IMG/VR virus record: IMGVR_UViG_3300045938_000009
Coordinates: 1 to 35,334 of that record
Reading direction: 5' to 3' (one strand)
Source of the DNA: a virus
DNA: 35,334 nucleotides
Part shown: one piece after another, positions 3,706-35,334 of the stretch
How the letters are laid out: every line of letters starts with the position of its first letter
Numbering within the stretch: the stretch's first letter is position 1
Made by a program: the position numbers and the translations under genes
The notes under the pieces: generated by a model
The model's input: only the letters and a program-made list of their open reading frames with translations
The model's database searches: none
Told to the model about the DNA's origin: nothing

Positions 3706-3748
3706 GTAGTTATATAATGCTTCAGTTTTAACCGTTTGTCCAGTGTTT

Positions 3749-4984
3749 TTATAAAGGTCGGGAATGTTTCGCTCTTGCTACCCATGCACTAGACTTGATC
3801 CTAGCCACCCCGCGACTTGCTTTCATAGCATCAAATGCGTATCTCACTGCGTCCATAGAGTTAGACCATTCATGTACACTATCGTCAGGCTTCCGTGTCT
3901 CTCGACCTTCTTTATCTAATCCCCACTTATAGTTCAAGTAAGCCGTATATGTCTTTACGCTGCGTGATGTAATACTAATTTGTTGATCTTTAACATACCC
4001 AATACCTTGTTCAACGCTGTCTGCTCCCTTAGTAACGGCAATGATATTTATACCGTAGTTGTATATCTCATCAATACTTTTAGGCTCTGCGCTATCAGCT
4101 ACTACTAAAGCCTTAGGCTGGTTATCTAATATGTCAGCTATTGCCTTGTTACTTAAACCTTTTTGATACGCTATCTCGTCAATGATATAGCCGCCGTTAT
4201 AGTAGTAAAGAGCCACGATGACGGTAGGGTCAACTGAGTAACCAAAGTCCACACCGTAACGCTCTAGACGTGCCTCGTGAGGTATCTCATCAATCTTAGC
4301 CCAGTTATTATAGATCCTACCCTGTAATGTATTAGGCATACCCAGCCATTTATGTTTATAAAGTGCAGGTCGTTTCTCTTTATCATCTTCAACTTCAAGT
4401 AAAAGCTCACTAGGCATATAACCGTATTTAATACCAATATCATAATTTAGATTTAAGATAAGTGTGTTTGGACGTCCTTCAACTACTAAGCGTACATGCA
4501 CAGGGTCTTCTTCTTCAAGTCGGTTGTAAGTATAGATAATTTGAGAACCAGGCTTACGGACTGTAGGCGTTAGGATCTCAATGCTTGTTTTAGATATAGT
4601 TTGCGCTTCTTCTATCCAAGCAATGTCTATGCCCTCAATGGATTTAATACTCTGTTCGTTCCTATGTAAACCTTTAAATATAAAATCTGATCCGTTAACT
4701 GTGTTTACAATAGAGTTCTCTGTCACTCTAAATCCTGTTAATTCGTACTTGTTGATAAGATCTGCTAACAATTGATGAGATGATTCACCAATAGAGTTTT
4801 GGAACTCACGACCACATAGTACACGTGTCTTTTCTTGCATTGCTCTAATCAAAAGAAAGCGTGCAACCGTATGAGACTTTAAAGAGAAACGACCACCGTA
4901 TACAGCAGCCTCACGCCAATCTCTATCGAAGAGACGTTTGTATTCAATTGGTATCTGTATTGTCTTTTGGTTCATCTTGTCCAA
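3749..4984 (-). CDS. terL: Terminase large subunit (PBSX/XtmB-like type)
   Basis: 411 aa with a deviant Walker A (YGGRFSLKS), VLCGREFQNSIGESS, a Walker B-like motif (DIAWIEEAQ) and a nuclease-half motif (GVDFGYSVDPT). The start may be the internal ATG at 4975. Confidence 0.9.
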   Translation of the reverse strand: MDKMNQKTIQIPIEYKRLFDRDWREAAVYGGRFSLKSHTVARFLLIRAMQEKTRVLCGREFQNSIGESSHQLLADLINKYELTGFRVTENSIVNTVNGSDFIFKGLHRNEQSIKSIEGIDIAWIEEAQTISKTSIEILTPTVRKPGSQIIYTYNRLEEEDPVHVRLVVEGRPNTLILNLNYDIGIKYGYMPSELLLEVEDDKEKRPALYKHKWLGMPNTLQGRIYNNWAKIDEIPHEARLERYGVDFGYSVDPTVIVALYYYNGGYIIDEIAYQKGLSNKAIADILDNQPKALVVADSAEPKSIDEIYNYGINIIAVTKGADSVEQGIGYVKDQQISITSRSVKTYTAYLNYKWGLDKEGRETRKPDDSVHEWSNSMDAVRYAFDAMKASRGVARIKSSAWVARAKHSRPL

Positions 4985-5450
4985 TAAACTGCACTAATAC
5001 AGGTAATTTATCACCACCGCTAGTTAAGTCTGTTTCTGTCTTGTCTTTCCAGCCAAAGTTGTTTTTCAAGTTGAAGATAGCACCAGATTGATTGCTGGTT
5101 TCCATTAGTCGAGTCTCAACATCTTCTTGTACTCTTTCACGAGCATCTTTTATAGTGCCGAAATATTCATCTCGTTTACCGTAGTTTAAAAGAGTATCAC
5201 GGTCTATCCCTAAGCGTCTAGCAAGCCCAGACATTGTATAAGGAGCAGGTGAACTGATCTCCATGTTGTCGCCTAGATCTTTGATGTAAATGCTCTTAGT
5301 GCGGTTGTCACACCAGTCAAAGTATTCATCAATAACCTTAGCTAACTCTTCATTAGTTTTAAAGAGTAAAGGCCGCCCAACTGGATTTTTAGTAGACGAC
5401 TGAGTTGTAAGATCTTTGTCTTGCTCTGTCATATGTTCGTATAATACCAC
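4944..5450 (-). CDS. terS: Terminase small subunit
   Basis: 168 aa. GRPLLFKTNEELAKVIDEYFDWC plus the HTH-like YTMSGLARRLGIDRDTLLNY resemble small terminases. It overlaps the terL start. Confidence 0.7.
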   Translation of the reverse strand: MVLYEHMTEQDKDLTTQSSTKNPVGRPLLFKTNEELAKVIDEYFDWCDNRTKSIYIKDLGDNMEISSPAPYTMSGLARRLGIDRDTLLNYGKRDEYFGTIKDARERVQEDVETRLMETSNQSGAIFNLKNNFGWKDKTETDLTSGGDKLPVLVQFIGQDEPKDNTDTN

Positions 5451-5725
5451 TAATGTTTGATAAAAGAAAAGAGGCGTTTTATTCTTTGTAGGATTGTTTC
5501 TTTCTTGTTAAACCAAATACTTCCAGACCATACGGGTTTGTAGTCTGGTATATCCCATTGAACTAACTCCCATTTACTCGAAGGACGATTGTACTCATAC
5601 CCTTCAAAATCTTCTTTACCTAAAATAACACCTTTAAGTCCACCCCAATCTACAATTTTATCACCGCGTTTAAACTTAACATTTCCGTCATTCATTTCTT
5701 TTTGCTGAATAGGTTCTTTAGCCAT
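5450..5725 (-). CDS. Hypothetical protein (91 aa)
   Basis: ORF in the co-directional operon; its stop abuts the terS start. No motif recognised. Confidence 0.6.
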   Translation of the reverse strand: MAKEPIQQKEMNDGNVKFKRGDKIVDWGGLKGVILGKEDFEGYEYNRPSSKWELVQWDIPDYKPVWSGSIWFNKKETILQRIKRLFSFIKH

Positions 5726-6496: not shown

Positions 6497-6596
6497 GGCA
6501 AATCACACAACCGTATTCATCAAACTCATACTTACTATTACCCTTTGTTACTATTCCCTTCTTCTTCCAGTGTCCGTGTAGTATTCTGTGTAGCAT
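6489..6596 (-). CDS. Possible micro-ORF (35 aa, His/Cys-containing)
   Basis: MLHRILHGHWKKKGIVTKGNSKYEFDEYGCVICHE. Its ATG directly follows the upstream stop, and its own stop overlaps the next start. Confidence 0.3.
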   Translation of the reverse strand: MLHRILHGHWKKKGIVTKGNSKYEFDEYGCVICHE

Positions 6597-6815
6597 TTAT
6601 TGCTCCTTAATTACGAATTTAGATAACTTAGACATTCTATCCTCCCAGTCATCTGCTATGTGTAAGTTATCTTTAGATAACCCATATTTATCAAATATAT
6701 TCATAGCAGATTCACCAGCTCCCATAAAATCGTGACCAAATGTACCACTACAATATTGTTCATACATTTGGCATAAAGAATAAAGGATTATAAACTCATT
6801 GTTAGTTAACTTCAC
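6597..6815 (-). CDS. Hypothetical protein (72 aa)
   Basis: ORF-track entry lying within the operon; no motif recognised. Confidence 0.6.
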   Translation of the reverse strand: MKLTNNEFIILYSLCQMYEQYCSGTFGHDFMGAGESAMNIFDKYGLSKDNLHIADDWEDRMSKLSKFVIKEQ

Positions 6816-6979
6816 TCGTTTATCCCCTCAAAATCTAATAATTGATACGTTACCTGAATTACCCTTCCACCTAATCTTTCTATACGAGCGTTGGCTACTT
6901 CAAGTCCTAAAGACTCACTGAACTGCTTTGTTTGCTCTTGTATCTCTACTGCTAGGGTCATTGGTTCGTTATCTCTCAT
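6812..6979 (-). CDS. Hypothetical protein (55 aa; shortened from track ORF 6812..7063)
   Basis: The internal ATG at 6979 follows AAAGGA at good spacing. The upstream 28 codons (MRVYLRHSAYFQYLQ...) look non-genic. Confidence 0.5.
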   Translation of the reverse strand: MRDNEPMTLAVEIQEQTKQFSESLGLEVANARIERLGGRVIQVTYQLLDFEGINE

Positions 6980-8144: not shown

Positions 8145-8204
8145 TACTCGTCTCCTCAATTACTATTGGTGGGTATGGCAGAGGCCAGTTCTCTAGGTCA
8201 GGAT

Positions 8205-8327
8205 TCATGAGTGACCACCACCAACAAGCGCAGTAAACCCTACTATGAATACAATTACCCCTGCAACTGCTAGGGTAGCTACTACCCATTCAGCTACTTG
8301 TATTGTTATTCGTTTAGCTTTACTCAT
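8205..8327 (-). CDS. Possible small membrane protein (40 aa)
   Basis: MSKAKRITIQVAEWVVATLAVAGVIVFIVGFTALVGGGHS contains one clear TM helix. AAGAAGG lies upstream. Confidence 0.35.
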   Translation of the reverse strand: MSKAKRITIQVAEWVVATLAVAGVIVFIVGFTALVGGGHS

Positions 8328-8390
8328 AACGCCTTCTTGATCTCTGCTAATGTGCGATCATATTCTAAATAAATGCGGAACTTACTTAAT

Positions 8391-9462: not shown

Positions 9463-9496
9463 TGCTTATCCCTTCTGGTGATTTGCTTATGTATTT

Positions 9497-9525
9497 ATAT
9501 TAGCATAACCAAGTGCAGAATACAA
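9497..9525 (-). promoter_or_regulatory. Sigma70-type promoter (family E): TTGTAT-N17-TAATAT
   Basis: On the - strand, -35 is at 9525-9520 and -10 at 9502-9497. The leader ...CACCAGAAGGGATAAGCAATG follows. Confidence 0.6.
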
Positions 9526-10188: not shown

Positions 10189-10707
10189 TCAATCATATTG
10201 ATTAACCCAATTCTCTTTCATTTCAATAGTTGTTTTTATTCTATGGCAATAGTCACACAATACTTGACCATTATTTACATCTAGTAATTGTTTTCTATCT
10301 TTCATATAAGGTACTATGTGATCTGCTTGTATTTTCCCGCCTCTTTGACTGCACCATTGGCAAGTATAGTCATCTTTTTCATACACTTTCTTTCGCCACT
10401 CTTTATATTCTTGAGTATTTCTTAGACTGACACGTAGTGTCGTTACACCACCACGCCAACTAGGATTATTTACACCCAACTTTTGCGCTCTTAATTTAGC
10501 TTTAGTTTCTAAAGAAGTAGGTAATCCTTTTCTTGAACCTTTTTTGTAGGTGCATTGTATTGAACAGAATCGTCTAACTTTATACACATAGTCTAGTTCT
10601 TTAAGAGTTTTGGTGGTTACTTTATCGCACACTTCACATTTCCAAGTAACGGTTTTAACGCCATTAACTATTGGCTTATAGGATTTATGCCCTTTTGTAT
10701 ACGTCAT
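10189..10707 (-). CDS. HNH endonuclease
   Basis: 172 aa with an HNH core (CQWCSQRGGKIQADHIVPYMKDRKQLLDVNNGQVLCDYCHRIKT) and an N-terminal CxxC pair. Confidence 0.85.
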   Translation of the reverse strand: MTYTKGHKSYKPIVNGVKTVTWKCEVCDKVTTKTLKELDYVYKVRRFCSIQCTYKKGSRKGLPTSLETKAKLRAQKLGVNNPSWRGGVTTLRVSLRNTQEYKEWRKKVYEKDDYTCQWCSQRGGKIQADHIVPYMKDRKQLLDVNNGQVLCDYCHRIKTTIEMKENWVNQYD

Positions 10708-10724
10708 AGTAACATTATATATGG

Positions 10725-11117
10725 TTAATTACATTCCCACAAGTTTGAAGCGCCGTCTCTGAACATCTGCGCTGTCACATTAGCGTTAGCTTCGGCGTTA
10801 AAAACACTTGACCCATGATAACCATACTTTGTAGCTCTTGAAGACCAGTAATTATTAAGGTGCTGAAACAATCCTGACGGAAAATCTTTACCATTTTCGC
10901 TGTAATTGTAATTCACTGCTTGAGGGTTTAAAGTACTTTCACATTTAGCGATCTGTACAAAATGCTCTTCGTCTATACCGTATTTACGTGCTGCTTGTAG
11001 TACAATAGCCTCTACGTCCGTGACTACCTCGCTGGTATTAGCCTGTGACGGTGCTAGAGGCTCTGTAACAACTACTTCCGCAATAACTGGTACTTCTTCC
11101 GTCTTTACTTCTTGCAC
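10725..11117 (-). CDS. Lytic transglycosylase (SLT-like domain)
   Basis: 130 aa. IAKCESTLNPQAVNYNYSENGKDFPSGLFQ fits the SLT signature ES..NP.A....G..GL.Q. It has a GTG start and no signal peptide. Confidence 0.7.
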   Translation of the reverse strand: MQEVKTEEVPVIAEVVVTEPLAPSQANTSEVVTDVEAIVLQAARKYGIDEEHFVQIAKCESTLNPQAVNYNYSENGKDFPSGLFQHLNNYWSSRATKYGYHGSSVFNAEANANVTAQMFRDGASNLWECN

Positions 11118-11131
11118 AGTAGCGACGGGGA

Positions 11132-11338
11132 CTACTGAGCGTCTTTTGACGTAAGTTCTTTGTACTGTGCTGTTACTTGACTACGTACGTTTGAATCAAA
11201 GTCGCTTCGGATCATCCAACCAGTGATTAAACCAGCTAGGGCGATTGTAACCGCTACGATGATTGCGTATGGTACAAGTAACTTAATTTCTACTGTACGT
11301 GCTTGTTTGCTCTTAATAACTTTTTCTTGCTTACTCAT
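11132..11338 (-). CDS. Small single-pass membrane protein (68 aa)
   Basis: TM helix LLVPYAIIVAVTIALAGLITGWMI. It is the first ORF downstream of non-coding locus A. Confidence 0.6.
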   Translation of the reverse strand: MSKQEKVIKSKQARTVEIKLLVPYAIIVAVTIALAGLITGWMIRSDFDSNVRSQVTAQYKELTSKDAQ

Positions 11339-11345
11339 TTTGTTT

Positions 11346-11990
11346 CTCTTTTCTTTTTTTGTATTCAGTCAGTGCATGGCTGCTAGTAGGAATTAGCCAG
11401 GGTGGAATCGAACCTCCCGAACTGCGATACGCGGCCTCCTTTTCTGAAGCTATCTACTACTAGCTAACTATATAAACACACCGACAGGGCGACTCTTAGT
11501 TGGGAAACTCAAGCCCTAATGTGGGTGGTATTCCGCTGTTTATATAGCCATGTGGAGCGTACAAGTATTCATCAATAGCGTGACTTACTCAAGTATAGCT
11601 ATTTAACTCGACGGTTTTCACACCGCTTATACGTCCATGTACTGACTGAATTGTTAATGTGTAATTAAGCGCATGGGGCTGCCGCTGCTTACTTGTCCTT
11701 GGATTTCAAGTCCACGTATCCACTCGTTAGGTTTCCCGTTGAAATGAGTCCCCGTAGCTTAGTCAAACAAGTAGTTTCAACTGCGGCCCACTGCGCTTAA
11801 TTGTTAATGTTTGTTTGACTGTTCGTCGTCCAAGCCCAGTTCCGTTTAGAGTTTCGTATAATACTACTTGCTATCGGCTGTGGCTTGGGTGATGAACAGT
11901 CAAACGGTTTCCTCTGCGTATCTTTGTGCTAGATGTTCGGGTGCATATCATCCCTGTTTCGCTTTGGTTGTACCCCTTCTTCGGTGGTAT
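11346..11990 (-). ncRNA. Candidate large structured non-coding RNA or long structured leader (locus A, about 645 nt)
   Basis: No - strand ORF of 60 aa or more lies across 11339-12037. A TTGACA-N17-TACTAT promoter sits at 11997-12025. Long-range helices: 11363-11379/11635-11651, 11382-11389/11457-11464, 11663-11673/11792-11802 and 11811-11836/11882-11907. Ordered blocks are shared with 32382-32849. Strand is assigned from the promoter only. Confidence 0.5.
11393..11466 (-). other. tRNA-like acceptor/T-arm element inside locus A (not a canonical tRNA)
   Basis: The - strand reads TAGCTAG...GGAGGTTCGATTCCACC-CTGGCTA-A. That gives a 7-bp acceptor-like stem with one G.U, and a T-arm with a TTCGATT loop and one A.A mismatch. 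Total length is 74 nt, but I could find no D-arm or anticodon arm. Confidence 0.35.
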
Positions 11991-11996
11991 GTCTCT

Positions 11997-12025
11997 ATAG
12001 TACTACACCATTGCGCTTATGTCAA
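11997..12025 (-). promoter_or_regulatory. Strong sigma70-type promoter driving locus A: TTGACA-N17-TACTAT
   Basis: -35 at 12025-12020 and -10 at 12002-11997 with an exact 17-nt spacer. It sits directly after the ninG-like stop. Confidence 0.7.
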
Positions 12026-12037
12026 TACTAATTGTGC

Positions 12038-12568
12038 TTATTGTTCAAGTTTTTTGACTTCACCCCTGTAAAAATCTATTAGTTCAATGATCTCTTTTGT
12101 CTTTATTTTGAGTACTTGGCGGCTTTTTACCTCTAATTGGTCTACAAATTCACGTCCATACGTATCTATCATCCACCTAGTGTAATTTATATAATTACCT
12201 TTAAGAAACACATTACATGCTGCGTCTTGAATGTGACAGTTGTCTATATCCCACCTAGTAGGATAACGACCACGTGAGAAGAAATGACCATTTTGCTGTT
12301 CCTTCCAAGGCTTTGAATTACCGCAGGTGACACAAGTACCAATGCCGTTTACTGACTTAGACATACGTATATATACAGAAAAGATAGAGTCTAGCTGCCG
12401 AACGTAGTAAGAACGGGTCTTTTGCTTAGGTTTTGGTACTTTAGTTGACTTACTAACCGTCTTTTTAATTGCCGTTCGCTGTAGGGGCTTACGTGGCTTC
12501 GTAGGACAAAAAGCAGCAGTGTGATAGGTACTGCTGCATAGTTTGCATGGGTTAGACTTAATTGTCAT
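12038..12568 (-). CDS. ninG: NinG/Rap-like recombination endonuclease
   Basis: Zinc knuckle CKLCSSTYHTAAFCP, basic linker, CVTCG...GHFFSRG...RWD..NCHIQDAACN, as in lambda NinG-family proteins. The start is taken at MTIKSNP (12568); the track extends to 12598. Confidence 0.8.
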   Translation of the reverse strand: MTIKSNPCKLCSSTYHTAAFCPTKPRKPLQRTAIKKTVSKSTKVPKPKQKTRSYYVRQLDSIFSVYIRMSKSVNGIGTCVTCGNSKPWKEQQNGHFFSRGRYPTRWDIDNCHIQDAACNVFLKGNYINYTRWMIDTYGREFVDQLEVKSRQVLKIKTKEIIELIDFYRGEVKKLEQ

Positions 12569-12674
12569 ACGAATCAAGAATAAACTTACCAAAACCATTC
12601 ATGCTTGGTACTTGTGAAAGTGCTCGGCATATCTCTAAATAATTACTGTATGCTTCGTTAATTTCTTGCTTCAC
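12558..12674 (-). CDS. Possible micro-ORF (38 aa, GTG start)
   Basis: GGGGGA precedes the GTG. Translation is VKQEINEAYSNYLEICRALSQVPSMNGFGKFILDSYDN. Its stop overlaps the ninG-like ATG. Confidence 0.3.
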   Translation of the reverse strand: MKQEINEAYSNYLEICRALSQVPSMNGFGKFILDSYDN

Positions 12675-12690
12675 TATATCCCCCTATTTT

Positions 12691-12784
12691 CCTGATCCCC
12701 TCTCAATGTTTGACCCCATACACATAAAGCCTAGAAAGTGCGTTGAGAGCGAGATCAGGTGTCTCTAAGAGTGGGCTTAGAGAC
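12691..12784 (-). other. Two adjacent hairpins in an intergenic leader
   Basis: H1 is 12761-12769/12776-12784, a 9-bp stem. H2 has arms at 12691-12706 and 12743-12759 (CCTGATC and CTCTCAA segments pair). Neither is followed by a U-tract. Confidence 0.35.
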
Positions 12785-12798
12785 TTCCTAATTGTAAC

Positions 12799-12957
12799 TT
12801 ATTTTTCGAATATCTTTCCTACTAACCAACCAATACCTACTATAATTCCCATGATAGCGTAAATAATAATTGCAAATACAATGCGTAGTATAAATAGCCC
12901 TACTGATACACCAATTACAATGATAATGATTAGAAAGATTAGTGATCCAATGTCCAT
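12799..12957 (-). CDS. Possible small hydrophobic membrane protein (52 aa)
   Basis: MDIGSLIFLIIIIVIGVSVGLFILRIVFAIIIYAIMGIIVGIGWLVGKIFEK contains two TM helices. It starts 1 nt after the erf stop. Confidence 0.45.
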   Translation of the reverse strand: MDIGSLIFLIIIIVIGVSVGLFILRIVFAIIIYAIMGIIVGIGWLVGKIFEK

Positions 12958-12958
12958 A

Positions 12959-13600
12959 TTAGTTTGCTCCGTTTAAGTTAGTTGGGTCTGATTCAAGCGC
13001 ATCCATTACTAAGTGCGCATCTTCTAGGCTATCAATGGTATTCTTCTCTAGCACCATAGTAATAAATGTTTTCTTCTGGTCTGGTCGGTTGTAGTCGTGT
13101 GCAATAAGAGTTTCGTTAATCTCTACTTTTGCACGTGCTAGACGGTCTGCGTCTGTTTCTCCCATAGGTGAAGGGCCTTGCTTTACTTCTTCTGTACGGT
13201 TGCGTATTTCTTTAGTAGCTTTAGGCTTTACTTGCTCACCTGCTGCATCGGGATCTGAGTCTGTGACTAGTCCAAGGGCAGCACTAAGAGCGTACCGCTT
13301 CATGTAAGTGATAGCCGAACCTAATACCTGAAAGTCGTTCATTCCCTTTAGCTGTACGCCTTGTGGAATTGCTGCAAGTGATTCAATTGATTCACCAGAC
13401 TCTACGTGAAAGATGATAGTCTTTAGGTTTGTACCTTCTAAAAGCTGTGTAAAGCCTAACTGGTACTTCTGCATGTAGTGGTTAACTGTATCAATAGTTT
13501 CTCCCCAATCTGCGTATGAGTAGCCGTAGCCTGTTGTACCTTTAAAGATGTGAGGTACTTCCTGCTGGAATCCTGCAATTGCTTTGTATAGTTCTTTCAT
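12959..13600 (-). CDS. erf: Erf-family single-strand annealing protein
   Basis: 213 aa. GYSYADWGETIDTVNHYMQKYQLGF and ITYMKRYALSAALGL are typical of ERF-superfamily recombinases. Confidence 0.85.
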   Translation of the reverse strand: MKELYKAIAGFQQEVPHIFKGTTGYGYSYADWGETIDTVNHYMQKYQLGFTQLLEGTNLKTIIFHVESGESIESLAAIPQGVQLKGMNDFQVLGSAITYMKRYALSAALGLVTDSDPDAAGEQVKPKATKEIRNRTEEVKQGPSPMGETDADRLARAKVEINETLIAHDYNRPDQKKTFITMVLEKNTIDSLEDAHLVMDALESDPTNLNGAN

Positions 13601-13698
13601 TATTTACTTCCGTCTATTAAATTAAGTATTTTTTCAGCTAAATACACACTAAGAAAAAAAGAAATTATAAATATGAGTGCAAGCAATAGATACTCCAT
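13600..13698 (-). CDS. Possible micro-ORF (32 aa, one TM helix)
   Basis: MEYLLLALIFIISFFLSVYLAEKILNLIDGSK, with TAATG coupling at both ends. Confidence 0.35.
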   Translation of the reverse strand: MEYLLLALIFIISFFLSVYLAEKILNLIDGSK

Positions 13699-13781
13699 TA
13701 AACTCTCGGCTTTACTGTATAACTAATACCATCTGTAGTACCTAATGGGTAAAAGCTTTTAATATATGTTACTTGAATCAT
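13698..13781 (-). CDS. Possible micro-ORF (27 aa)
   Basis: MIQVTYIKSFYPLGTTDGISYTVKPRV. It has ATGA coupling upstream and TAATG coupling downstream. Confidence 0.25.
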   Translation of the reverse strand: MIQVTYIKSFYPLGTTDGISYTVKPRV

Positions 13782-13969
13782 TTGTTTTCTACCTTAAATG
13801 CTGGAATTTTTTTGGTCAAATATTTATCAGCAAATTCTTGAATTGTATCTAATGCATCTAACATTGCATCCATATCTACTTTTGTTGGTTTGACTTTTAA
13901 TTTTACTTCTAGTTCTACTTTTTCGTTATAACTTATTTCTTGACTGTAGTTTAATTCAAATACGCTCAT
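13778..13969 (-). CDS. Hypothetical protein (63 aa), first leftward early gene
   Basis: ORF-track entry lying directly behind the promoter at 14000-14028 and a family-E leader. Confidence 0.6.
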   Translation of the reverse strand: MSVFELNYSQEISYNEKVELEVKLKVKPTKVDMDAMLDALDTIQEFADKYLTKKIPAFKVENK

Positions 13970-13999
13970 TGCAATCCCTTCTGTTTGATTGATACTCTA

Positions 14000-14028
14000 A
14001 TAGTAACACATGCTTACGCTAAATACAA
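14000..14028 (-). promoter_or_regulatory. Leftward early promoter (family E): TTGTAT-N17-TACTAT
   Basis: -35 at 14028-14023 and -10 at 14005-14000. The leader is TAGAGTATCAATCAAACAGAAGGGATTGCAATG. Confidence 0.7.
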
Positions 14029-14034
14029 CACCTA

Positions 14035-14063
14035 TTCACAAAATAACCTACAAATGTTATACT
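14035..14063 (+). promoter_or_regulatory. Rightward promoter: TTCACA-N17-TATACT, back-to-back with the leftward promoter
   Basis: -35 at 14035-14040 and -10 at 14058-14063. The two -35 boxes are 6 bp apart. Confidence 0.6.
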
Positions 14064-14071
14064 TTACAGAT

Positions 14072-14160
14072 AAGCACCCTTACGCAGTCGGTCTTTCTTT
14101 GAGTAAGCATACCTTTCTCTTTGCAATATCCCTTCTACCTGCAATAGGGTGCTTCTTTTT
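14072..14160 (+). promoter_or_regulatory. Leader hairpin plus U-tract (possible attenuator or terminator) ahead of 14223 gene
   Basis: AAGCACCCT (14072-14080) pairs with AGGGTGCTT (14146-14154) and is followed by CTTTTT. An inner GCAG/CTGC pairing extends the rod. The loop is long, at 65 nt. Confidence 0.4.
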
Positions 14161-14175
14161 GTAGTAATATAAAGT

Positions 14176-14198
14176 TAGCACTTTCACATTCCCAGCCA
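14176..14198. repeat. Left arm of 23-bp inverted repeat bracketing ORF 14223..14477
   Basis: TAGCACTTTCACATTCCCAGCCA matches the reverse complement of 14491-14513 at 22 of 23 positions. Confidence 0.85.
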
Positions 14199-14222
14199 AG
14201 CCAAGAAAAGAGAAGAATAGTT

Positions 14223-14477
14223 ATGTCAGGAAAAGACGAAGTACAGCAAGAAACAGATACACCGCGAGACTCTCGTACAAAATATTATTCAGAAAGTATT
14301 GAGACGCAAATTGAAGGTTTTCTGTTAGGCAAGGTATTAACAATAATTGATGCCTCATATAGTGATCAAGTTCAAAGAAATGCAGTTAAGTCTTTAATCA
14401 AAGACAAATTCCATGCACAGCTAGACTACTACCTGAATCGAATTGGGTATGCTAACAGTGAAGACTTACGTAAATAA
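14223..14477 (+). CDS. Hypothetical protein (84 aa)
   Basis: + strand ORF behind a purine-rich RBS (AAGAGAAGAA). No motif recognised. Confidence 0.65.
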   Translation: MSGKDEVQQETDTPRDSRTKYYSESIETQIEGFLLGKVLTIIDASYSDQVQRNAVKSLIKDKFHAQLDYYLNRIGYANSEDLRK

Positions 14478-14490
14478 TTAAATAATCCTT

Positions 14491-14513
14491 TGGCTGGGAT
14501 TGTGAAAGTGCTA
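14491..14513. repeat. Right arm of 23-bp inverted repeat
   Basis: TGGCTGGGATTGTGAAAGTGCTA. Its core TTGTGAAAGTGCT recurs at 12612-12624. Confidence 0.85.
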
Positions 14514-14520
14514 TTATAAT
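14509..14520 (+). promoter_or_regulatory. Possible extended -10 promoter (TGCTATTATAAT)
   Basis: A TGn motif precedes TATTAT, and this overlaps a TATAAT. It would start a roughly 70-nt transcript ending at the 14557-14598 hairpin. Confidence 0.4.
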
Positions 14521-14556
14521 TACATAAAGGAAACGTTGTCTGCTGTCCAAACTGAA

Positions 14557-14598
14557 TAAAGACGTGCTATAACCTGTCGGCATGTCTTTATTTATTTG
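14557..14598 (+). terminator. Hairpin terminator candidate T1
   Basis: An 11-bp stem (14557-14567/14580-14590) with one G.T, followed by TTTATTTG. An A-tract upstream suggests it could act bidirectionally. Confidence 0.5.
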
Positions 14599-14722
14599 TA
14601 TTGCTATTTAAAAAGCTTTCGTTTAATCTAAGCGTGTATAAATAACTTTGTCGTTCGCAGCGCACTTGTTTATAAGCACCTTACGCCTTCTTTTGGAAGA
14701 GTCAAATAACAAACATTGAACT

Positions 14723-14760
14723 GAGCTAGACGGCTACACACCTCCTAGCTCTTTTCTTTT
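14723..14760 (+). terminator. Intrinsic terminator candidate T2
   Basis: GAGCTAG/CTAGCTC stem (14723-14729/14745-14751) with a 15-nt loop, followed by TTTTCTTTT. Confidence 0.6.
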
Positions 14761-14763
14761 GTC

Positions 14764-14792
14764 TTGAACATTAGCGCGTTGTGATGTATAGT
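14764..14792 (+). promoter_or_regulatory. Promoter TTGAAC-N17-TATAGT
   Basis: -35 at 14764-14769 and -10 at 14787-14792 with an exact 17-nt spacer, in an ORF-free region. Confidence 0.65.
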
Positions 14793-14863
14793 AGGTGTTA
14801 CGGTATCAACACAATCTTCAAATTTTATGTTGATACCTAGAAAGACTGATTAGCTCTAGGGTA

Positions 14864-14892
14864 TTGCAAATCACTCATCTTGCGTCTATAAT
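14864..14892 (+). promoter_or_regulatory. Near-consensus promoter TTGCAA-N17-TATAAT nested inside the candidate sRNA
   Basis: -35 at 14864-14869 and -10 at 14887-14892. The predicted start near 14899 coincides with the right arm of the 15-bp helix. Confidence 0.65.
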
Positions 14893-14915
14893 AAGTGACG
14901 AAGATTGTGTTGATG

Positions 14916-14943
14916 AAGCGCCCCTAGTGGGCGTTTTTCTTTT
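14916..14943 (+). terminator. Canonical intrinsic terminator T3
   Basis: GC-rich stem AAGCGCCC/GGGCGTTT with a 5-nt loop, followed by TTTTTCTTTT. Confidence 0.8.
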
Positions 14944-15039
14944 GCCTTGATTCGCGCGGATCTTGGTTACTCATAAACATATTGTGCCGTACCTATGTAA
15001 TTAGGGTTATTAAGTGCGGCTAGAAAAAGGGGTTAATTC

Positions 15040-15315
15040 ATGTATTCCACCAAGCAACTAGTTAGTAGTAACAAGGAACTTGAACAACTAGTAAGTAGTA
15101 AGCAGTTAACTAGTTTTGATATTCAGAATAGGGCATTAGGAATTGCAGAAGGTCTTACTTCAATAGTAGAACCAAACAATATGACTGCGTGGTATTGCAA
15201 GGCTTATAAGACATTAGGTGAACACAAGTACTCGGCGCTAGTGAGTATGGCAAAACAAGGGCGTAATCCAAAAGCTTTATTTGGCTGGTTACTTAAACAG
15301 GAGTTAAACAAATGA
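15040..15315 (+). CDS. Hypothetical protein (91 aa) with N-terminal tandem repeat
   Basis: AAAGGGG RBS. The QLVSS(N/K)KEL repeat is encoded by a 17-nt direct repeat at 15054-15070 and 15084-15100. Confidence 0.65.
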   Translation: MYSTKQLVSSNKELEQLVSSKQLTSFDIQNRALGIAEGLTSIVEPNNMTAWYCKAYKTLGEHKYSALVSMAKQGRNPKALFGWLLKQELNK

Positions 15316-15665
15316 GAGAATTAAAGTTTAGAGCATGGGACATTAACGATAATAAGATGATCAACTCACACGACTTTTATTTAAGTGGCCAAGGAGATGA
15401 AGCGTTAGGAGTCAATGCTAATAAAAGGTCAATAGTTCCTTTACAGTATGTAGGATCTAAAGACAAGAATGGTGCTGATATATACGACTCTGACATTGTT
15501 AAAGACAAAGAAGGTAGGATAATATTAGTTCAGTGGGATGACGAAACCGCATCGTTTGCTTTAGTGAATGACAAATGGTTATTCAGACACTGGTTTCATG
15601 AAGCAACCAACCAAGCCGATGTAGAAGTAATCGGCAACATGTATGAAAACCCTGAACTCTTGTAA
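15312..15665 (+). CDS. YopX-family protein
   Basis: MRELKFRAWD start and a VIGNMYENPELL end are hallmarks of YopX-like phage proteins. ATGA coupling to the upstream gene. Confidence 0.8.
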   Translation: MRELKFRAWDINDNKMINSHDFYLSGQGDEALGVNANKRSIVPLQYVGSKDKNGADIYDSDIVKDKEGRIILVQWDDETASFALVNDKWLFRHWFHEATNQADVEVIGNMYENPELL

Positions 15666-15679
15666 TATACACTTGGTTA

Positions 15680-15688
15680 TGCTATTAT
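15680..15688 (+). promoter_or_regulatory. Possible extended -10 promoter (TGCTATTAT) giving a leaderless mRNA
   Basis: The hexamer ends at 15688 and the ATG of the next gene begins at 15695, 7 nt away. There is no SD sequence in between. Confidence 0.35.
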
Positions 15689-15694
15689 GCAGAT

Positions 15695-16198
15695 ATGAAG
15701 AGAAAGACCGTATACATCGCAACACCAATCATACTCGCTGGTTTACTATCAGGAGTAGCATTTTTAAACATTAACCAGGAGAAGCCAGTGGTAAAAGAGC
15801 AAGCTAAAGTTGAAGTAGTAGAACAGGAAGTTAAGCCCGTAGAAGCTCCTGTAGAGGAAGTAACACAAGAAGTGGTTAATGAGCCAGTTCAAGTAGCACA
15901 AGCTCCTGCAGTAGCCCCAGAACAGCCTACAGTGACTATTCTTAGCACTCAGGAATACGCTAACCAGTATTTAGATATGACAGTACCACGTGCGCAGCAA
16001 TGTTTAGACGCTATTGTAGCTACATGGCCTGCACGATTTGCTGAGGGCGTACGAGAAGCTAACATTAAGGGTTTACGAGCATTTGCCAATATCTGTACTA
16101 CAGGAATGGATGAGCCTAATAAGCAAACGGCCATTATCTATAGGTATGGTGCTAATGGTGAGTTCTTTGACAGCCAGCTAGCAATTAGCAAACATTAG
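15695..16198 (+). CDS. Membrane-anchored extracytoplasmic protein (167 aa)
   Basis: N-terminal TM anchor (VYIATPIILAGLLSGVAFL), a Pro/Glu/Val-rich linker, and a C-terminal globular part with two Cys. Confidence 0.7.
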   Translation: MKRKTVYIATPIILAGLLSGVAFLNINQEKPVVKEQAKVEVVEQEVKPVEAPVEEVTQEVVNEPVQVAQAPAVAPEQPTVTILSTQEYANQYLDMTVPRAQQCLDAIVATWPARFAEGVREANIKGLRAFANICTTGMDEPNKQTAIIYRYGANGEFFDSQLAISKH

Positions 16199-16234
16199 TA
16201 TTAGAATATACCTACAATTAACAAGGAGTCGTTT

Positions 16235-16504
16235 ATGACAGAACATATTGTTGATAATAGAGAAACATCTATTACATCTGTACCGCACTACAAAGTGTCT
16301 AGGATTAAATACGGGCATCCAGAAGATGATATAAGATACTATTACGTGTTAGAAAAAGTGGAATTAGACGGTAAGTTCGCAGGTTGGCGTAATGCAATTG
16401 ATAAAGCTTACACTCACAGTACGTCCGCATATGCTGCAATGGGTAGACTATTTCAAGAATATATAAAAGATCATAATATGGAATTACCATATAGAGAAGT
16501 CTAA
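16235..16504 (+). CDS. Hypothetical protein (89 aa)
   Basis: AAGGAG RBS. It is the last rightward gene. Confidence 0.65.
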   Translation: MTEHIVDNRETSITSVPHYKVSRIKYGHPEDDIRYYYVLEKVELDGKFAGWRNAIDKAYTHSTSAYAAMGRLFQEYIKDHNMELPYREV

Positions 16505-16513
16505 AAATAAAAC

Positions 16514-16545
16514 AGACCCTCGCTAAATACGAGGGTCTTTAGTTT
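16514..16545. terminator. Bidirectional intrinsic terminator between convergent units
   Basis: AGACCCTCG/CGAGGGTCT 9-bp stem with a 7-nt loop, flanked by T-rich runs in both transcript orientations (an A-rich run on the + strand upstream). Confidence 0.8.
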
Positions 16546-16558
16546 ATCTGCCACTGTA

Positions 16559-16825
16559 TTATTTAACTACAGTTTGGTCTCCTGATGCACCACCGCCAGC
16601 TTTTCCAGCAACAACGCTAATACCAATAGCTCCAAGAGCGTATATAAGACCTTGTGCAATGCTAATGTCGGTTAGACCAATCAATACGTCAATAAGAGCA
16701 ATAACAAGCCCTACGACGAATGCTAATATAACTGTAACCCAACCCTGTACTTGTGGAACTCCCATCTTAATAAGTTGCGTCAATGCAACAATTACTAGTG
16801 GAATGAACAAACTTGCGTCTACCAT
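16559..16825 (-). CDS. Putative holin
   Basis: 88 aa with two or three TM helices and a charged C-terminus. It is the last gene of the late operon, directly after the endolysin. Confidence 0.6.
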   Translation of the reverse strand: MVDASLFIPLVIVALTQLIKMGVPQVQGWVTVILAFVVGLVIALIDVLIGLTDISIAQGLIYALGAIGISVVAGKAGGGASGDQTVVK

Positions 16826-16836
16826 TATGAACTCCT

Positions 16837-17529
16837 TTAATTAACCTTACGATATACAGTATACTCTACTGCTTCGTAACCGTTAGTATTACCCTTGTCT
16901 GCCAGTTGCTTCTTTAAATCTTCTACTTCTTTACGAGCAGCGTTTAAAGCTGATTGCAAAATATCATTAGATTTAACCGCTGATTCTACAGATCCACGCG
17001 CTGCGTTAAGTGCAGACTGCAATATTTCGGTATTTTTACGTTCCGCATTTAAAGCTGATTGCAATACTTCTTCTACGTTTGTCGCCATATCTTCCTCCAC
17101 TACTTTTACTTTACCTATGTACTCACTCCACCCTAGATATTTACAGCCGTTATTACTCCGAGCATACATATCTATGAGATTTAATAAGTTTGGGTGTATA
17201 TAACCTGTATCGTGATACCCAGTCATTGTAGACGATGCTACTCGCCCATCCTCCAGTTGTAAGGCTACATGTCCAGCAGTTGTACTGCCTAGAGAAAAGT
17301 ATAGTGCTACCCTTACACCTTTAGGCGGTAAAGCATCATGATTACCACCTTTATAATTATCACTCCACGCTGAACTTGCAGATCTATAAACTCCATACGT
17401 CATGTATGTTCCGTCGTTTTGCTTCTTAGGAGGAGTTGCAACGCCTATAGTACCTTCTACGTATCCTTCACATAGTCCTCCGTAATACGGCACATTTGGA
17501 TTAGGTGTGACTATTTGCTTGTAAGACAT
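16837..17529 (-). CDS. Putative endolysin (CHAP/NlpC-P60-like peptidase) with C-terminal coiled-coil repeats
   Basis: Candidate catalytic Cys (YYGGLCEGYV) and His (TAGHVALQLEDG). The C-terminus has three copies of ILQSALNAxR. Confidence 0.6.
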   Translation of the reverse strand: MSYKQIVTPNPNVPYYGGLCEGYVEGTIGVATPPKKQNDGTYMTYGVYRSASSAWSDNYKGGNHDALPPKGVRVALYFSLGSTTAGHVALQLEDGRVASSTMTGYHDTGYIHPNLLNLIDMYARSNNGCKYLGWSEYIGKVKVVEEDMATNVEEVLQSALNAERKNTEILQSALNAARGSVESAVKSNDILQSALNAARKEVEDLKKQLADKGNTNGYEAVEYTVYRKVN

Positions 17530-19450: not shown

Positions 19451-19507
19451 GTAACTCCTTGTGTCTTTAATGTACCATTGATTGTAATCTCATGGTAGTG
19501 ATAATTG

Positions 19508-19684
19508 TTACGTTTGTGGTATTGTAGGTTGTTTCACATTAAATATTTGTAGACTCCGTTCAATCTCCTCATAAATAATAGTTACTTCTGTCGGCCTGAA
19601 TAAGACAAACAGAAAGAGTGTCACAAACATTACAAAACTGATTACAAGTACCAAGCCAGCAGGTGAGAGCTTGTACTTCTTCAT
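19508..19684 (-). CDS. Possible small membrane protein (58 aa)
   Basis: MKKYKLSPAGLVLVISFVMFVTLFLFVLFRPTEV... The ATG directly follows the upstream stop. Confidence 0.45.
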   Translation of the reverse strand: MKKYKLSPAGLVLVISFVMFVTLFLFVLFRPTEVTIIYEEIERSLQIFNVKQPTIPQT

Positions 19685-32381: not shown

Positions 32382-32425
32382 CGTCCATTACTTAGATAAT
32401 AGCATATAGCGTGTAGGAATGTTAA
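32379..32425 (-). promoter_or_regulatory. Probable late-type promoter-leader cassette (family L, diverged)
   Basis: The - strand reads TGCTATTAT-CTAAGTAAT-GGACGGTG, aligning with TGYTATATT-TAAGATAAC-..-GGACGGGG. Confidence 0.4.
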
Positions 32426-32429
32426 ATAT

Positions 32430-32815
32430 AATTCAGTAAATACATGGATGCTAGTAGCAAGTGCCTGACTATTTAACCTATATGGATTCAGAACAACTTA
32501 ATGTCTCTGGTCATAGCTCAAGATTACTACTAGCTGACTATCAAATAAGGTACGGCGTCACGTCTAAAGCATGCGCTTCTCCAAATCCTATTTAGTCATG
32601 TTGAACATATAAGACAAGGATTTGCATGTGGAGATTGCGCTCTCGATATTGCTATCTATAGTTTTTCACCTTGTTGTCACCTTGCATACTGCGTTGCTAA
32701 CCTACACCAGCCGAACGCAGCTTATGATCTGTGTAGTCAAGCGTCTACCTATTCCGCCACTTATATGTCCATGTATGCACTGAATTGTTTAGTTGCTATC
32801 CCTTCTTGGTGGATA
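32430..32815 (-). ncRNA. Candidate structured non-coding RNA (locus B, about 385 nt), paralog of locus A
   Basis: No track ORF in any of the six frames across 32382-32849. The promoter is at 32821-32849. A closing helix pairs 32430-32447 with 32769-32786. The stem 32450-32457/32527-32534 is identical to the one in locus A. Nested helices occur at 32573-32582/32630-32640 and 32583-32589/32617-32623. Confidence 0.45.
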
Positions 32816-32820
32816 TACTC

Positions 32821-32849
32821 ATATTAACACACGCTTACGTTAATTACAA
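32821..32849 (-). promoter_or_regulatory. Family-E promoter driving locus B: TTGTAA-N17-TAATAT
   Basis: -35 at 32849-32844 and -10 at 32826-32821. It directly abuts the stop of the glycosyltransferase-like gene. Confidence 0.7.
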
Positions 32850-34533: not shown

Positions 34534-34574
34534 TATTTCTCCTTAGTGTTGTCCAATATTGTGAAACTATTTTA

Positions 34575-34727
34575 CTATAAAATATTTTCTTTTACCATTT
34601 CAGGTATGACACTATCTGCCCAGTACTCAATTAGATCATCTAACTTAGACTTTATTTGTTTACCAGAAAGTTCAACTCCTCTTTCGAGGTAAGAGTCATA
34701 AATTGATTGTGATAATTTCTTTTCCAT
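34575..34727 (-). CDS. Small protein (50 aa), below the ORF-track cut-off
   Basis: MEKKLSQSIYDSYLERGVELSGKQIKSKLDDLIEYWADSVIPEMVKENIL. It is preceded by a family-E leader, GAAGGTAATCTAATAAGAAGGGATTGCAATG. Confidence 0.5.
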   Translation of the reverse strand: MEKKLSQSIYDSYLERGVELSGKQIKSKLDDLIEYWADSVIPEMVKENIL

Positions 34728-34754
34728 TGCAATCCCTTCTTATTAGATTACCTT

Positions 34755-34783
34755 CATTGTATACCATATTTAATTTTTAAGTT
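34755..34783 (-). promoter_or_regulatory. Possible family-E promoter copy (TACAAT -10, weak -35)
   Basis: It aligns base-for-base with the 35027-35055 promoter-leader. The -35 lies inside the upstream ORF. Confidence 0.4.
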
Positions 34784-34997: not shown

Positions 34998-35026
34998 TAT
35001 TAATCCCTTCTGGTTAGATTACCCTC

Positions 35027-35055
35027 ATTATATCACATGGTTATGCTAATTACAA
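35027..35055 (-). promoter_or_regulatory. Family-E promoter TTGTAA-N17-TATAAT
   Basis: -35 at 35055-35050 and -10 at 35032-35027. The leader is GAGGGTAATCTAACCAGAAGGGATTAATAATG. Confidence 0.7.
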
Positions 35056-35104: not shown

Positions 35105-35334
35105 TTAGCTTCGGACTGCAACTGAGAATGTAGGACGTAGAGTCTTTACACCGAATACTGTATCGACTGTTAATAGCCAACCTAGGTATTCCTGCTTGTA
35201 CTGCGCTTGTGTACGTGGTTTCAACTGTAGAGCGATACCGAGTGCGTCCTTGTGGAAGGCAACACCAGTTTCTTGTACAGGAGTACCAGCAACGCTAGGG
35301 AAGTTCTGAGACATAACTACGTCAAAGCCGTAGA
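35105..35334 (-). CDS. Major capsid protein, 3' part (continuation of 1..749)
   Basis: ...GFDVVMSQNFPSVAGTPVQETGVAFHKDALGIALQLKPRTQAQYKQEYLGWLLTVDTVFGVKTLRPTFSVAVRS. GFDVV and VAFHKDALG parallel T7 gp10 GFEVV and LFMHRSAVG (recalled from memory). The M in the track ORF is internal. Confidence 0.85.
   Translation of the reverse strand, partial: YGFDVVMSQNFPSVAGTPVQETGVAFHKDALGIALQLKPRTQAQYKQEYLGWLLTVDTVFGVKTLRPTFSVAVRS
35208..35334. repeat. 127-bp exact duplicate of window bases 1-127 (circular closure overlap)
   Basis: Direct comparison: both copies start with tgtgtacgtggtttcaactgtagagcg and end with gtcaaagccgtaga. Confidence 0.95.

Follow-up and report, generated by a model that had tools for sequence, protein, structure and literature searches.

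A putative untranslated late-operon leader of a phage is a chain of three RNA modules that includes a covarying four-way junction

Phage-borne large structured RNAs (GOLLD, ROOL) rank among the least understood RNAs, and only a handful of families is known. The put RNAs of phage HK022 are double stem-loops of ~70 nucleotides (nt) that stand right after a promoter, and in lambdoid phages a late promoter and its leader separate the nin region from the lysis genes. GOLLD sometimes contains tRNAs in its linker, both GOLLD and ROOL occur near tRNA islands (PMC12286853), and 10,006 unnamed candidate structured RNAs have been mined from IMG/VR (PMC10690425). In ribosomal RNA (rrn) operons, boxA (consensus GYTCTTTAANA; PMC5725501) lies before boxC, and a leader-trailer helix brackets the structured RNA (PMC10250234). 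Here we analyse the IMG/VR virus record IMGVR_UViG_3300045938_000009 (35,334 nt, hereafter the window; a circular assembly of ~35,207 bp (~35.2 kb), in which bases 1-127 are identical to 35208-35334) and, within it, an ORF-free region (locus A; ORF, open reading frame) that follows a NinG-like gene. Locus A is best explained as the ~660-nt untranslated leader of the lysis/late operon (membrane protein, lytic transglycosylase, HNH endonuclease and onward), which runs leftward from a promoter at 12025-11997. The leader comprises three RNA modules that fold independently of one another (H1, H2 and D3), arranged as follows.

11997-12025, minus strand: sigma-70-type promoter TTGACA-17-TACTAT (10/12 matches), directly after the stop of the NinG-like gene (12038)
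11973-11987, minus strand: purine-rich Shine-Dalgarno-like box CCACCGAAGAAGGGG, not followed by a start codon
11813-11905, strand unassigned: H1, a hairpin with 24-nt arms that are 88% complementary
11799-11810, minus strand: tag copy 1, ACAUUAACAAUU, directly 5' of H2
11663-11802, minus strand: H2, a 140-nt hairpin with the base AAUUAAGCG / CGCUUAAUU (folding z-score -4.7)
11649-11660, minus strand: tag copy 2, ACAUUAACAAUU, directly 5' of D3
11363-11651, minus strand: D3, a covariation-supported four-way-junction RNA closed by a 17-bp helix (P1)
11339-11362, minus strand: A-rich spacer that separates D3 from the start codon (11338) of a 68-amino-acid (aa) membrane protein gene

The region is non-coding. 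Between 11339 and 12037 no minus-strand ORF exceeds 26 aa, the plus strand holds only spurious ORFs (57-67 aa), and the longest stop-free stretch of the sense strand is 43 aa, leaving no credible ORF and bearing out the initial annotation, which had reported the absence of minus-strand ORFs of 60 aa or more. Its description of the genome as otherwise gap-free was overstated, since five further ORF gaps are present (32382-32849, 14478-15039, 8160-8390, 19451-19684 and 34534-34769), while the near-consensus promoter that it placed right after the ninG-like stop (TTGACA-N17-TACTAT) is confirmed at 10 of 12 positions. A hidden protein-coding gene was considered and rejected: the copies of D3 range from 247 to 437 nt through indels in their tips and share no common frame. 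The variation of D3 is concentrated in the hairpin tips and in paired, compensating positions.

The fold of the region is far more stable than that of shuffled sequence (z-score -10.4 for 11339-12000 with 20 shuffles; -7.4 for 11339-12037 with 60 dinucleotide shuffles), and three coding stretches of similar length, used as controls, gave z-scores of +0.3, -0.2 and +1.9. The minimum-energy and centroid folds concur in three separate domains (H1, H2 and D3), each of which is significantly stable when folded alone. All four long-range helices listed in the initial annotation are present (11363-11379/11635-11651, 11382-11389/11457-11464, 11663-11673/11792-11802 and 11813-11836/11882-11905). Its inference of either a large structured RNA or a structured leader stands in so far as the region is non-coding, strongly structured, promoter-driven and leads the membrane-protein/transglycosylase operon; the idea of a single 650-nt fold gives way to three separable modules. 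The proposed mutually exclusive helices rest on a real 8-nt complementarity (11762-11770/11813-11820), but nothing conserved backs the alternative pairing. Relatives elsewhere were found only for H2 and D3. H1, which has no homolog among the related loci, is a hairpin private to this phage, with energies of -40.8 kcal/mol (z-score -7.8) on the minus strand and -48.9 kcal/mol (z-score -8.6) on the plus strand. At three positions H1 has A.C mismatches when read in the gene sense and G.U pairs when read on the plus strand, where no promoter was seen. A 26-codon ORF (11871-11951, minus strand; AGGGA five bases upstream), which is not conserved in the relatives, enters the 5' arm of H1, and its translation would open the hairpin.

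H2 and D3 are members of a wider family, made up of long-range helices that carry the tag and occupy intergenic positions in a small clade of 35-40 kb siphoviruses. The 12-nt direct repeat reported for locus A (AATTGTTAATGT), which corresponds to the tag ACAUUAACAAUU, occurs there in two exact copies (11649 and 11799), and in ~25 related phage contigs the tag stands, always in the gene sense, immediately 5' of long-range helices that are unrelated in sequence. At loci fetched via the transglycosylase-like protein, the motif (A)CAUUAACAAUU immediately precedes helices spanning 100-460 nt, with stems as dissimilar as AAUUAAGCGUAGUAGUGC, AAUUCAAGUGUGUG, AAUUCAUACAGUU and AACUUGAUUACC. The exact 11-mer CATTAACAATT was found at 10 related loci, always in the gene sense, and at none of 119 unrelated viral loci (1.05 Mb). 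Tag and helix together were counted 26 times in sense and once in antisense among the relatives, as against 22 and 19 in unrelated DNA, in which ~9% of tag-motif matches precede a helix by chance (the relaxed tag-plus-helix detector is contaminated by such matches). Behind most tagged hairpins, an A-rich stretch, a ribosome-binding site (RBS) and ATG come within 10-25 nt; the A-rich stretch seen after D3 recurs in the relatives together with an RBS, and some tagged helices bracket small ORFs (as in L129). H2 falls into the commonest class of tagged hairpins, with homologous hairpins in L125, L128, L129, L140, L143, L153 and L165, and when L140 is compared with L126, the former appears to have tag and hairpin at a site that is vacant in the latter. 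In L129 (~5052-5477) a helix surrounds two small ORFs, a layout that is also seen at the window ORF 14223-14477. A reading of the tag as a sigma-70 promoter was rejected, no -35 element being present at the right spacing (compiled flanks, by eye).

The elaborate member of the family is D3, of which the window contains a second copy (locus B).

11635-11651 / 11363-11379, minus strand: P1 of D3, 17 bp
11626-11634 / 11557-11565, minus strand: P2 of D3, 9 bp
11551-11556, minus strand: J2/3 of D3
11541-11550 / 11465-11474, minus strand: P3 of D3
11456-11464 / 11382-11390, minus strand: P4 of D3
11380-11381, minus strand: J4/1 of D3
32431-32785, minus strand: locus B, a D3 paralog, with a tag variant at 32783-32793
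32769-32785 / 32431-32447, minus strand: P1 of locus B
32760-32768 / 32605-32613, minus strand: P2 of locus B
32589 to 32535, minus strand: P3 of locus B
32526-32534 / 32450-32458, minus strand: P4 of locus B

In the D3 core, P1 is contiguous with P2 (ACAUAUAAG/CUUAUAUGU) and followed by a 6-nt joiner (UCAACA), after which P3 (UGGCUAUAUA/UAUAUAGUCA) is contiguous with P4 (GCUAGUAGU/RCUACUAGC) and a 2-nt joiner (AG) leads back to P1. The three hairpin tips are hypervariable (from a few nt to ~190 nt) and mostly unalignable. Locus B (folding z-score -3.2) has a closing helix like that of D3, with compensated differences, and shares the inner three helices and the junction strands; locus B, which the initial annotation had named together with A for a covariance model, is a true paralog of the D3 part alone.

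Seven sequences (window A and B, L001, L002, L111, L167 and L172) were aligned over the core, with the tips trimmed. Standard pairs occupy 97.1% of the cells of this alignment, and both sides have changed in 17 of the 45 pairs (P1 9, P2 2, P3 4, P4 2). None of 500 shuffles reached any of the five covariation measures, and sliding the partners by 1-3 columns lowered the pairing to 19-37%. A hand tally of a 6-sequence alignment gave 13 G.U cells and 4 A.C cells on the sense strand, and one G.U pair of P3 is kept in 5 of 7 copies; the conservation of this pair favours the gene-sense reading of D3 as RNA. Of the checks suggested in the initial annotation, that for helix covariation was thus positive in the D3 copies and that for conserved frames negative. 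The junction core is conserved at the nucleotide level, and compensatory changes have preserved its helices among phages that share only ~50-65% identity in the flanking protein.

The copies, which came from motif scans, from retrieval anchored on proteins and from a covariance model, are the following.

L001 and L002, IMG/VR contigs: full copies
L111, IMG/VR: five-way variant
L172, IMG/VR: copy of D3
L175, IMG/VR (truncated record): 5' part only
L167, genome assembly labelled Arthrobacter: copy of D3
L165: three-way variant
L151: divergent copy
L123: decayed remnant of 80 nt

A scan of IMG/VR with a 15-nt pattern returned ~120 loci, mostly by chance, one of which, L111, proved real. The covariance-model search that had been advised was partly successful: the core model (R1, default filters) recovered locus B in part (model positions 21-107) and missed L167, which carries long inserts, and the copies that it missed were recovered by motif scans. 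The 5' end of D3 had zero matches in GTDB genomes (DNA-pattern scan), blastn gave no match in INPHARED phages, and the relatives of the portal-like protein are only 21-28% identical. The position of D3 varies from genome to genome. It lies in the 5' untranslated region (UTR) before the membrane-protein gene in the window (where it starts ~345 nt after the promoter) and in L167, it is intercistronic in L002, L165 and L111, it follows the transglycosylase gene in L001 and there precedes a hairpin with a U-run that resembles an intrinsic terminator (by eye), and in locus B it stands between two promoter-like sites. Mainly because its context differs between genomes, we consider D3 to be a self-contained, insertable RNA module and not the regulator of a single gene.

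Several further features were observed at the copies. Just downstream of D3, L167 (4614-4672) and L172 (~11925-11985) have a hairpin with an identical loop (GGUGAUGCCCACCCUUACC) and a compensated stem, which is another conserved RNA module. In L167, a small HNH endonuclease ORF (3720-4163) lies between a tagged hairpin and D3 and ends 12 nt before the latter. The 3' strand of P1 begins with CCA in all D3 copies (P4/P1 junction of the window at 11377-11381); in L111, A-CCA comes after the P4 stem, as at the 3' end of a tRNA, and the other copies have one extra base (AG-CCA or AU-CCA). A likeness to ribosomal RNA (D3 to 16S 1050-1075, base of H2 to 23S helix 1) was set aside as fortuitous, no match being obtained with the rRNA models of Rfam.

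The tips of the arms contain pieces that resemble tRNA.

32741-32760, minus strand: GUGGCGGAAUAGGUAGACGC in the P2 tip of locus B, 19 of 20 bases matching the U8-G9-D-arm stretch of E. coli tRNA-Leu
11404-11414, minus strand: T-loop-like GGUUCGAUUCC in the P4 tip of D3, with an imperfect closing stem (one A.A mismatch, by eye)

For the 19/20 match, the sequence of E. coli tRNA-Leu was verified. The 20-mer GUGGCGGAAUAGGUAGACGC is identical in locus B, L167 and L151, whose P2 tips begin with stem-UG-GCGGAAUAGGUAGACGC, and since these are distant phages, its identity points to purifying selection and not to decay. T-loop-like stretches are also found in L111 (AGUGAGUUCGAAUCUCACU) and L151 (CAGGUUCGACUCCUG), and T-arm-like hairpins of the GGUUCGAAUCC type occupy the P4 tips of A and L151 and the P2 tip of L111 and lie beside D3 in L165 and L123. 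The tips thus carry both motifs of a tRNA-like module (the T-loop GUUCRANYC and the GG of the D-arm). At default settings, ARAGORN called no tRNA genes, either in the window or at 44 related loci, and the Rfam tRNA model had no match; at the 80% threshold with introns allowed, ARAGORN gave weak matches on both strands alike, which were discarded as evidence for tRNA genes. The GGUUCGAUUCC region forms a sub-threshold cloverleaf only at ARAGORN -ps80, and the match of the cyano_tmRNA model at 11370-11417 is weak (E 0.77, 12.3 bits against a gathering score of 70 bits). Sub-threshold Leu-like cloverleaves exist in L165 and L167; that of L165 (2561-2655) resembles tRNA-Leu(UAA), has a perfect T arm (CAGGGUUCGACUCCCUG) and lies just upstream of the D3 variant.

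Locus A occupies a place that corresponds to that of the lambdoid late leader. Upstream of it are genes for an Erf-like annealing protein and for a NinG/Rap-like protein (12038-12598), downstream of it those for the 68-aa membrane protein (11132-11338), a lytic-transglycosylase-like protein (10725-11117) and an HNH endonuclease, followed further on by the small terminase, large terminase and portal genes; nearly all genes of the window are on the minus strand. A terminator scan found no terminator inside the leader, and an intrinsic terminator (9563-9543) stands 1.8 kb downstream, ahead of the packaging genes. The relatives L123, L126 and L129 have a promoter at the equivalent place after NinG, and the leaders behind it in L123 (~130 nt) and L126 (220 nt) are without H1, H2 and D3. 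The RBS-like box that had been noted in the leader is present (11987-11973) and start-less, its exact sequence occurring only once and locus B carrying a variant (CCACCAAGAAGGGA, 32799-32812, minus strand). L123, L126 and L129 likewise have boxes of the AGAAGGG type without ATG in their late leaders, and we suggest that CCACCGAAGAAGGGG may act as a 5' stabiliser. Locus B is bracketed by two promoter-like sites, the second of which (32425-32396, downstream) serves the next gene, and the first of which is as follows.

32821-32849, minus strand: promoter-like TTGTAA-17-TAATAT upstream of locus B, one of four repeat copies

The repeat in question (~31 nt, promoter-like) has four direct copies (13996-14026, 16500-16530, 32817-32847 and 35023-35053) and an inverted copy near 9490-9525, beside the terminator at 9563-9543.

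How such a module might work can be sketched from its architecture. In the reading that we prefer, and to which we give an even chance, D3 is an autonomous module that is set free by way of its closing helix, much as rRNA and tRNA are from their precursors, and that exerts its effect via the tRNA-like tips. D3 would fold co-transcriptionally, and P1 (17 bp, at most one mismatch, contiguous on its 5' strand with the 9-bp P2, and covarying in 9 of 17 pairs) would serve as a leader-trailer-like stalk to be cut by a double-strand-specific RNase, for which stalks that bracket structured RNA and are cut by RNase III offer a precedent (PMC10250234). The cut would free a stable D3 particle of ~260-290 nt and leave the lysis mRNA downstream with a structured 5' end of its own, and the freed RNA would then have a trans effect on a host factor able to recognise elbows like those of tRNA. 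Several points weigh against this reading. Transcription, cleavage of P1, stability of the product and activity in trans are what we infer, and P1, at 17 bp, is short for RNase III unless stacked on P2 (26 bp in total). Neither ARAGORN nor Rfam finds a complete tRNA or tmRNA in D3, the ARAGORN matches at the lowered threshold being equally many on the wrong strand, and the decayed 80-nt copy in L123 makes the module dispensable in at least one phage. D3 is carried by only ~10 contigs, its covariation rests on 7 sequences in an alignment hand-trimmed around the tested helices, and covariation fits RNA helices and DNA hairpins alike, with a modest G.U bias. The remaining tagged hairpins give a mixed result when G.U is set against A.C by strand, and H1 is 8 kcal/mol more stable on the opposite (plus) strand. 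A broader scheme, in which the phages copy the logic of the rRNA operon as a whole (a boxA-like tag recruiting the antitermination/RNA-looping machinery of the host to each module, a stalk that is processed, and a new class of four-armed, tRNA-mimicking particles that act on host translation or tRNA processing in the course of infection), seems to us decidedly unlikely.

Other explanations account for parts of the same evidence. The leader could be purely cis-acting, with box and hairpins as mRNA stabilisers and processing punctuation (a cut in the AU-rich tag, and a hairpin that caps the cistron against 5'-exonuclease) and with no RNA acting in trans. The gene-sense orientation of the tagged hairpins, mostly 10-25 nt before an A-rich stretch, RBS and ATG, would follow naturally, as would the start-less Shine-Dalgarno-like box that the late leader carries close to its 5' end (in the window and in relatives) and the retention of the tag while the helix sequences differ; STAB-SD elements and the 5' stabilisers of phage SP82 work likewise. 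We nevertheless regard this account as unlikely, since it leaves the nucleotide-level conservation of the D3 junction and its tRNA pieces unexplained, a tandem of H2 and D3 would be redundant as 5' caps, the gene after locus B has a separate promoter-like site, and D3 of L001 precedes a terminator-like hairpin (by eye) and no gene. A processive antitermination or RNA-looping element of the rrn boxA or HK022 put type, in which the tag loads host NusB/NusE or a phage factor onto RNA polymerase, shields the RNA from Rho and holds the 5' strand for its distant partner, is again a decidedly weak candidate. In its favour, the tag shares UUAACAAUU with the boxA region of the E. coli rrn leader (TGCTCTTTAACAATTT, verified ~100 nt upstream of 16S), its place directly ahead of the 5' arm of a long-range helix is comparable to that of boxA ahead of boxC (PMC10250234), and the intrinsic terminator at 9563-9543 is 1.8 kb downstream. 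The usual tag (AACAUUAACAA) nevertheless matches the boxA consensus at only 7 of 11 positions and is without positions 1-3 (G-Y-U; PMC5725501), although the consensus of the host itself may differ; variants in L001 (CCUUUAACAAUU) and L172 (GAACUUUGACAAUC) come closer, and that of L168 (UGCUCUUUAACAAUC) fits. This canonical L168 copy (5347-5362) is inside a long hairpin and not before it, the leader in the window has no terminator within it, and D3 is not promoter-proximal and is far longer than the ~70 nt of the put RNAs. We therefore take the resemblance of the tag to boxA as a lead and not as membership.

The preferred reading of D3 as an RNA module also has to be set against accounts in which the RNA fold is incidental. 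If the units were inverted-repeat DNA cassettes (MITE-like, or recombination linkers like the PeSLs of T4) that spread among phages, their presence and position would be expected to vary in close relatives, as they do (filled and empty in L140 and L126, decayed in L123). HNH endonuclease genes beside D3 in L167 and ~650 nt downstream in the window fit such an account, as do helices or repeats that bracket small ORFs (two in the case of the L129 helix; 14223-14477 in the window), and H1 and some other hairpins fold equally well or better on the other strand. We consider it very unlikely all the same: no target-site duplication was seen at the L140/L126 or window/L126 junctions (by eye), no transposase was seen among the proteins scanned, compensatory changes between the arms would be needless for transposase-binding ends, and the 26-to-1 gene-sense orientation and the conserved G.U wobble point to RNA. 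No more credible is a decaying, at present functionless cluster of phage tRNAs, of which the D-arm match (19/20 to E. coli tRNA-Leu in B, L167 and L151), the T arms (A, L111, L151, L165 and L123) and the sub-threshold cloverleaves of L165 and L167 would be remnants; against it stand a junction core and helices that are kept by compensatory change over phages with ~50-65% identity in the flanking protein, and a D-arm-like 20-mer that is identical in distant phages. As for a replication origin, which the initial annotation had raised because no initiator gene is recognisable and which a non-coding region rich in inverted repeats might suggest, we reject it as extremely improbable. There are no iterons or tandem repeats in 10500-17000 (beyond three trivial ones elsewhere), the GC content at the locus is 0.42 with no AT trough (the AT-richest stretch being 13501-15000), and in close relatives the modules are missing from the equivalent place.

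Two side observations concern the gap at 14478-15039 (plus strand), a 562-nt ORF-free stretch with a folding z-score of ~-3.3, three hairpins each with a U-run (one of which, 14915-14937, is also on the terminator scan list) and a 15-bp long-range helix, which may be a small-RNA or immunity-control region. Next to it, a 24-nt inverted repeat (96%; 14176-14199 / 14490-14513) brackets the plus-strand ORF 14223-14477.

With regard to the host, the relatives of the transglycosylase-like protein include two metagenome-assembled genomes (MAGs) of Candidatus Saccharibacteria, together with contigs of ~50% GC in assemblies labelled Arthrobacter and Paeniglutamicibacter. On account of these relatives and of the GC content of the window (35-47%), we consider that the host is probably a member of the Saccharibacteria (candidate phyla radiation). 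Two transglycosylase-region copies (L168 and L169) lie 38 kb apart on one Saccharibacteria MAG contig, and in L129 the transglycosylase gene is followed by a gene for a long pentapeptide-repeat protein (~6560-6960). These phages thus apparently infect ultra-small symbiotic bacteria, in which gene regulation is almost unstudied. Their modular grammar, with one short tag heading many unrelated long-range helices, is unusual, and the tag, if it is truly a loading site for a host factor, would offer a compact handle on the formation of long-range RNA helices in vivo. D3, if released as a particle, would be a candidate for cryo-electron microscopy and a candidate host-takeover or anti-defence RNA.

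Compared with known systems, the modules stand apart in several respects. At gathering score, Rfam 15 had no match for the window or for any of nine related loci, and at E values up to 10 (locus A, locus B and L167) only chance-level matches to miRNA, snoRNA and leader models. D3 is therefore a previously undescribed RNA family in relation to Rfam, though not set apart from the unnamed candidates of PMC10690425. The likeness to the rrn boxA and leader-trailer helix consists in a short conserved motif, ending in UUAACAAUU, just 5' of a covarying long-range helix that drifts in sequence; the tag, however, abuts its helix whereas the rrn boxA stands 18-19 nt before it, and the tagged helices bracket 100-450 nt of non-ribosomal RNA, sometimes with small ORFs. 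The analogy to HK022 putL and putR, drawn in the initial annotation, goes as far as one phage having a pair of paralogous cis RNAs, in separate operons and each behind a promoter. It fails in size and position: D3 is larger and lies ~345 nt past the promoter, no terminator is found in the leader, and in the relatives D3 sits in 3' UTRs or between cistrons.

STAB-SD elements and the 5' stabilisers of phage SP82 act as 5' mRNA stabilisers in Gram-positive bacteria, and the R sites of T7 and SP82-type sites are single hairpins of ~50-60 nt. With these RNase III sites and stabilisers our modules have in common intercistronic gene-sense hairpins, long regular stems and a start-less Shine-Dalgarno-like box near the 5' end, but they span 100-460 nt, and the D3 core is multi-armed and conserved. 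YrlA, a Y RNA-like RNA, combines a long closing stem with a tRNA-like domain that has a T arm, which recalls the closing stem and tRNA-like tips of D3; D3 is two to three times larger, has four arms and has no Rfam match, and no Ro/Rsr gene was seen among the window proteins scanned. The PeSLs of T4-type phages are intergenic cassettes of a promoter and a short stem-loop, variable in presence and position, that bracket small ORFs. The tagged units resemble them as repeated intergenic stem-loops that vary between related phages and bracket small ORFs, and differ in that the tag is not a sigma-70 promoter. As to GOLLD and ROOL, membership in which had been suggested, no match to either Rfam model appears up to E=10 when locus A, locus B and L167 are searched, and D3 differs from both in its simple core (a 45-bp four-way junction within 250-440 nt, with no predicted pseudoknot). 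ARAGORN finds no tRNA genes in the window and the 44 related loci, and the tRNA fragments lie inside the RNA. Like them it is phage-borne and non-coding, has many helices, a conserved and a variable part, tRNA material and an obscure function; it adds to these RNAs a covariation-supported family whose core (45 bp, four arms, embedded tRNA fragments) is tractable.

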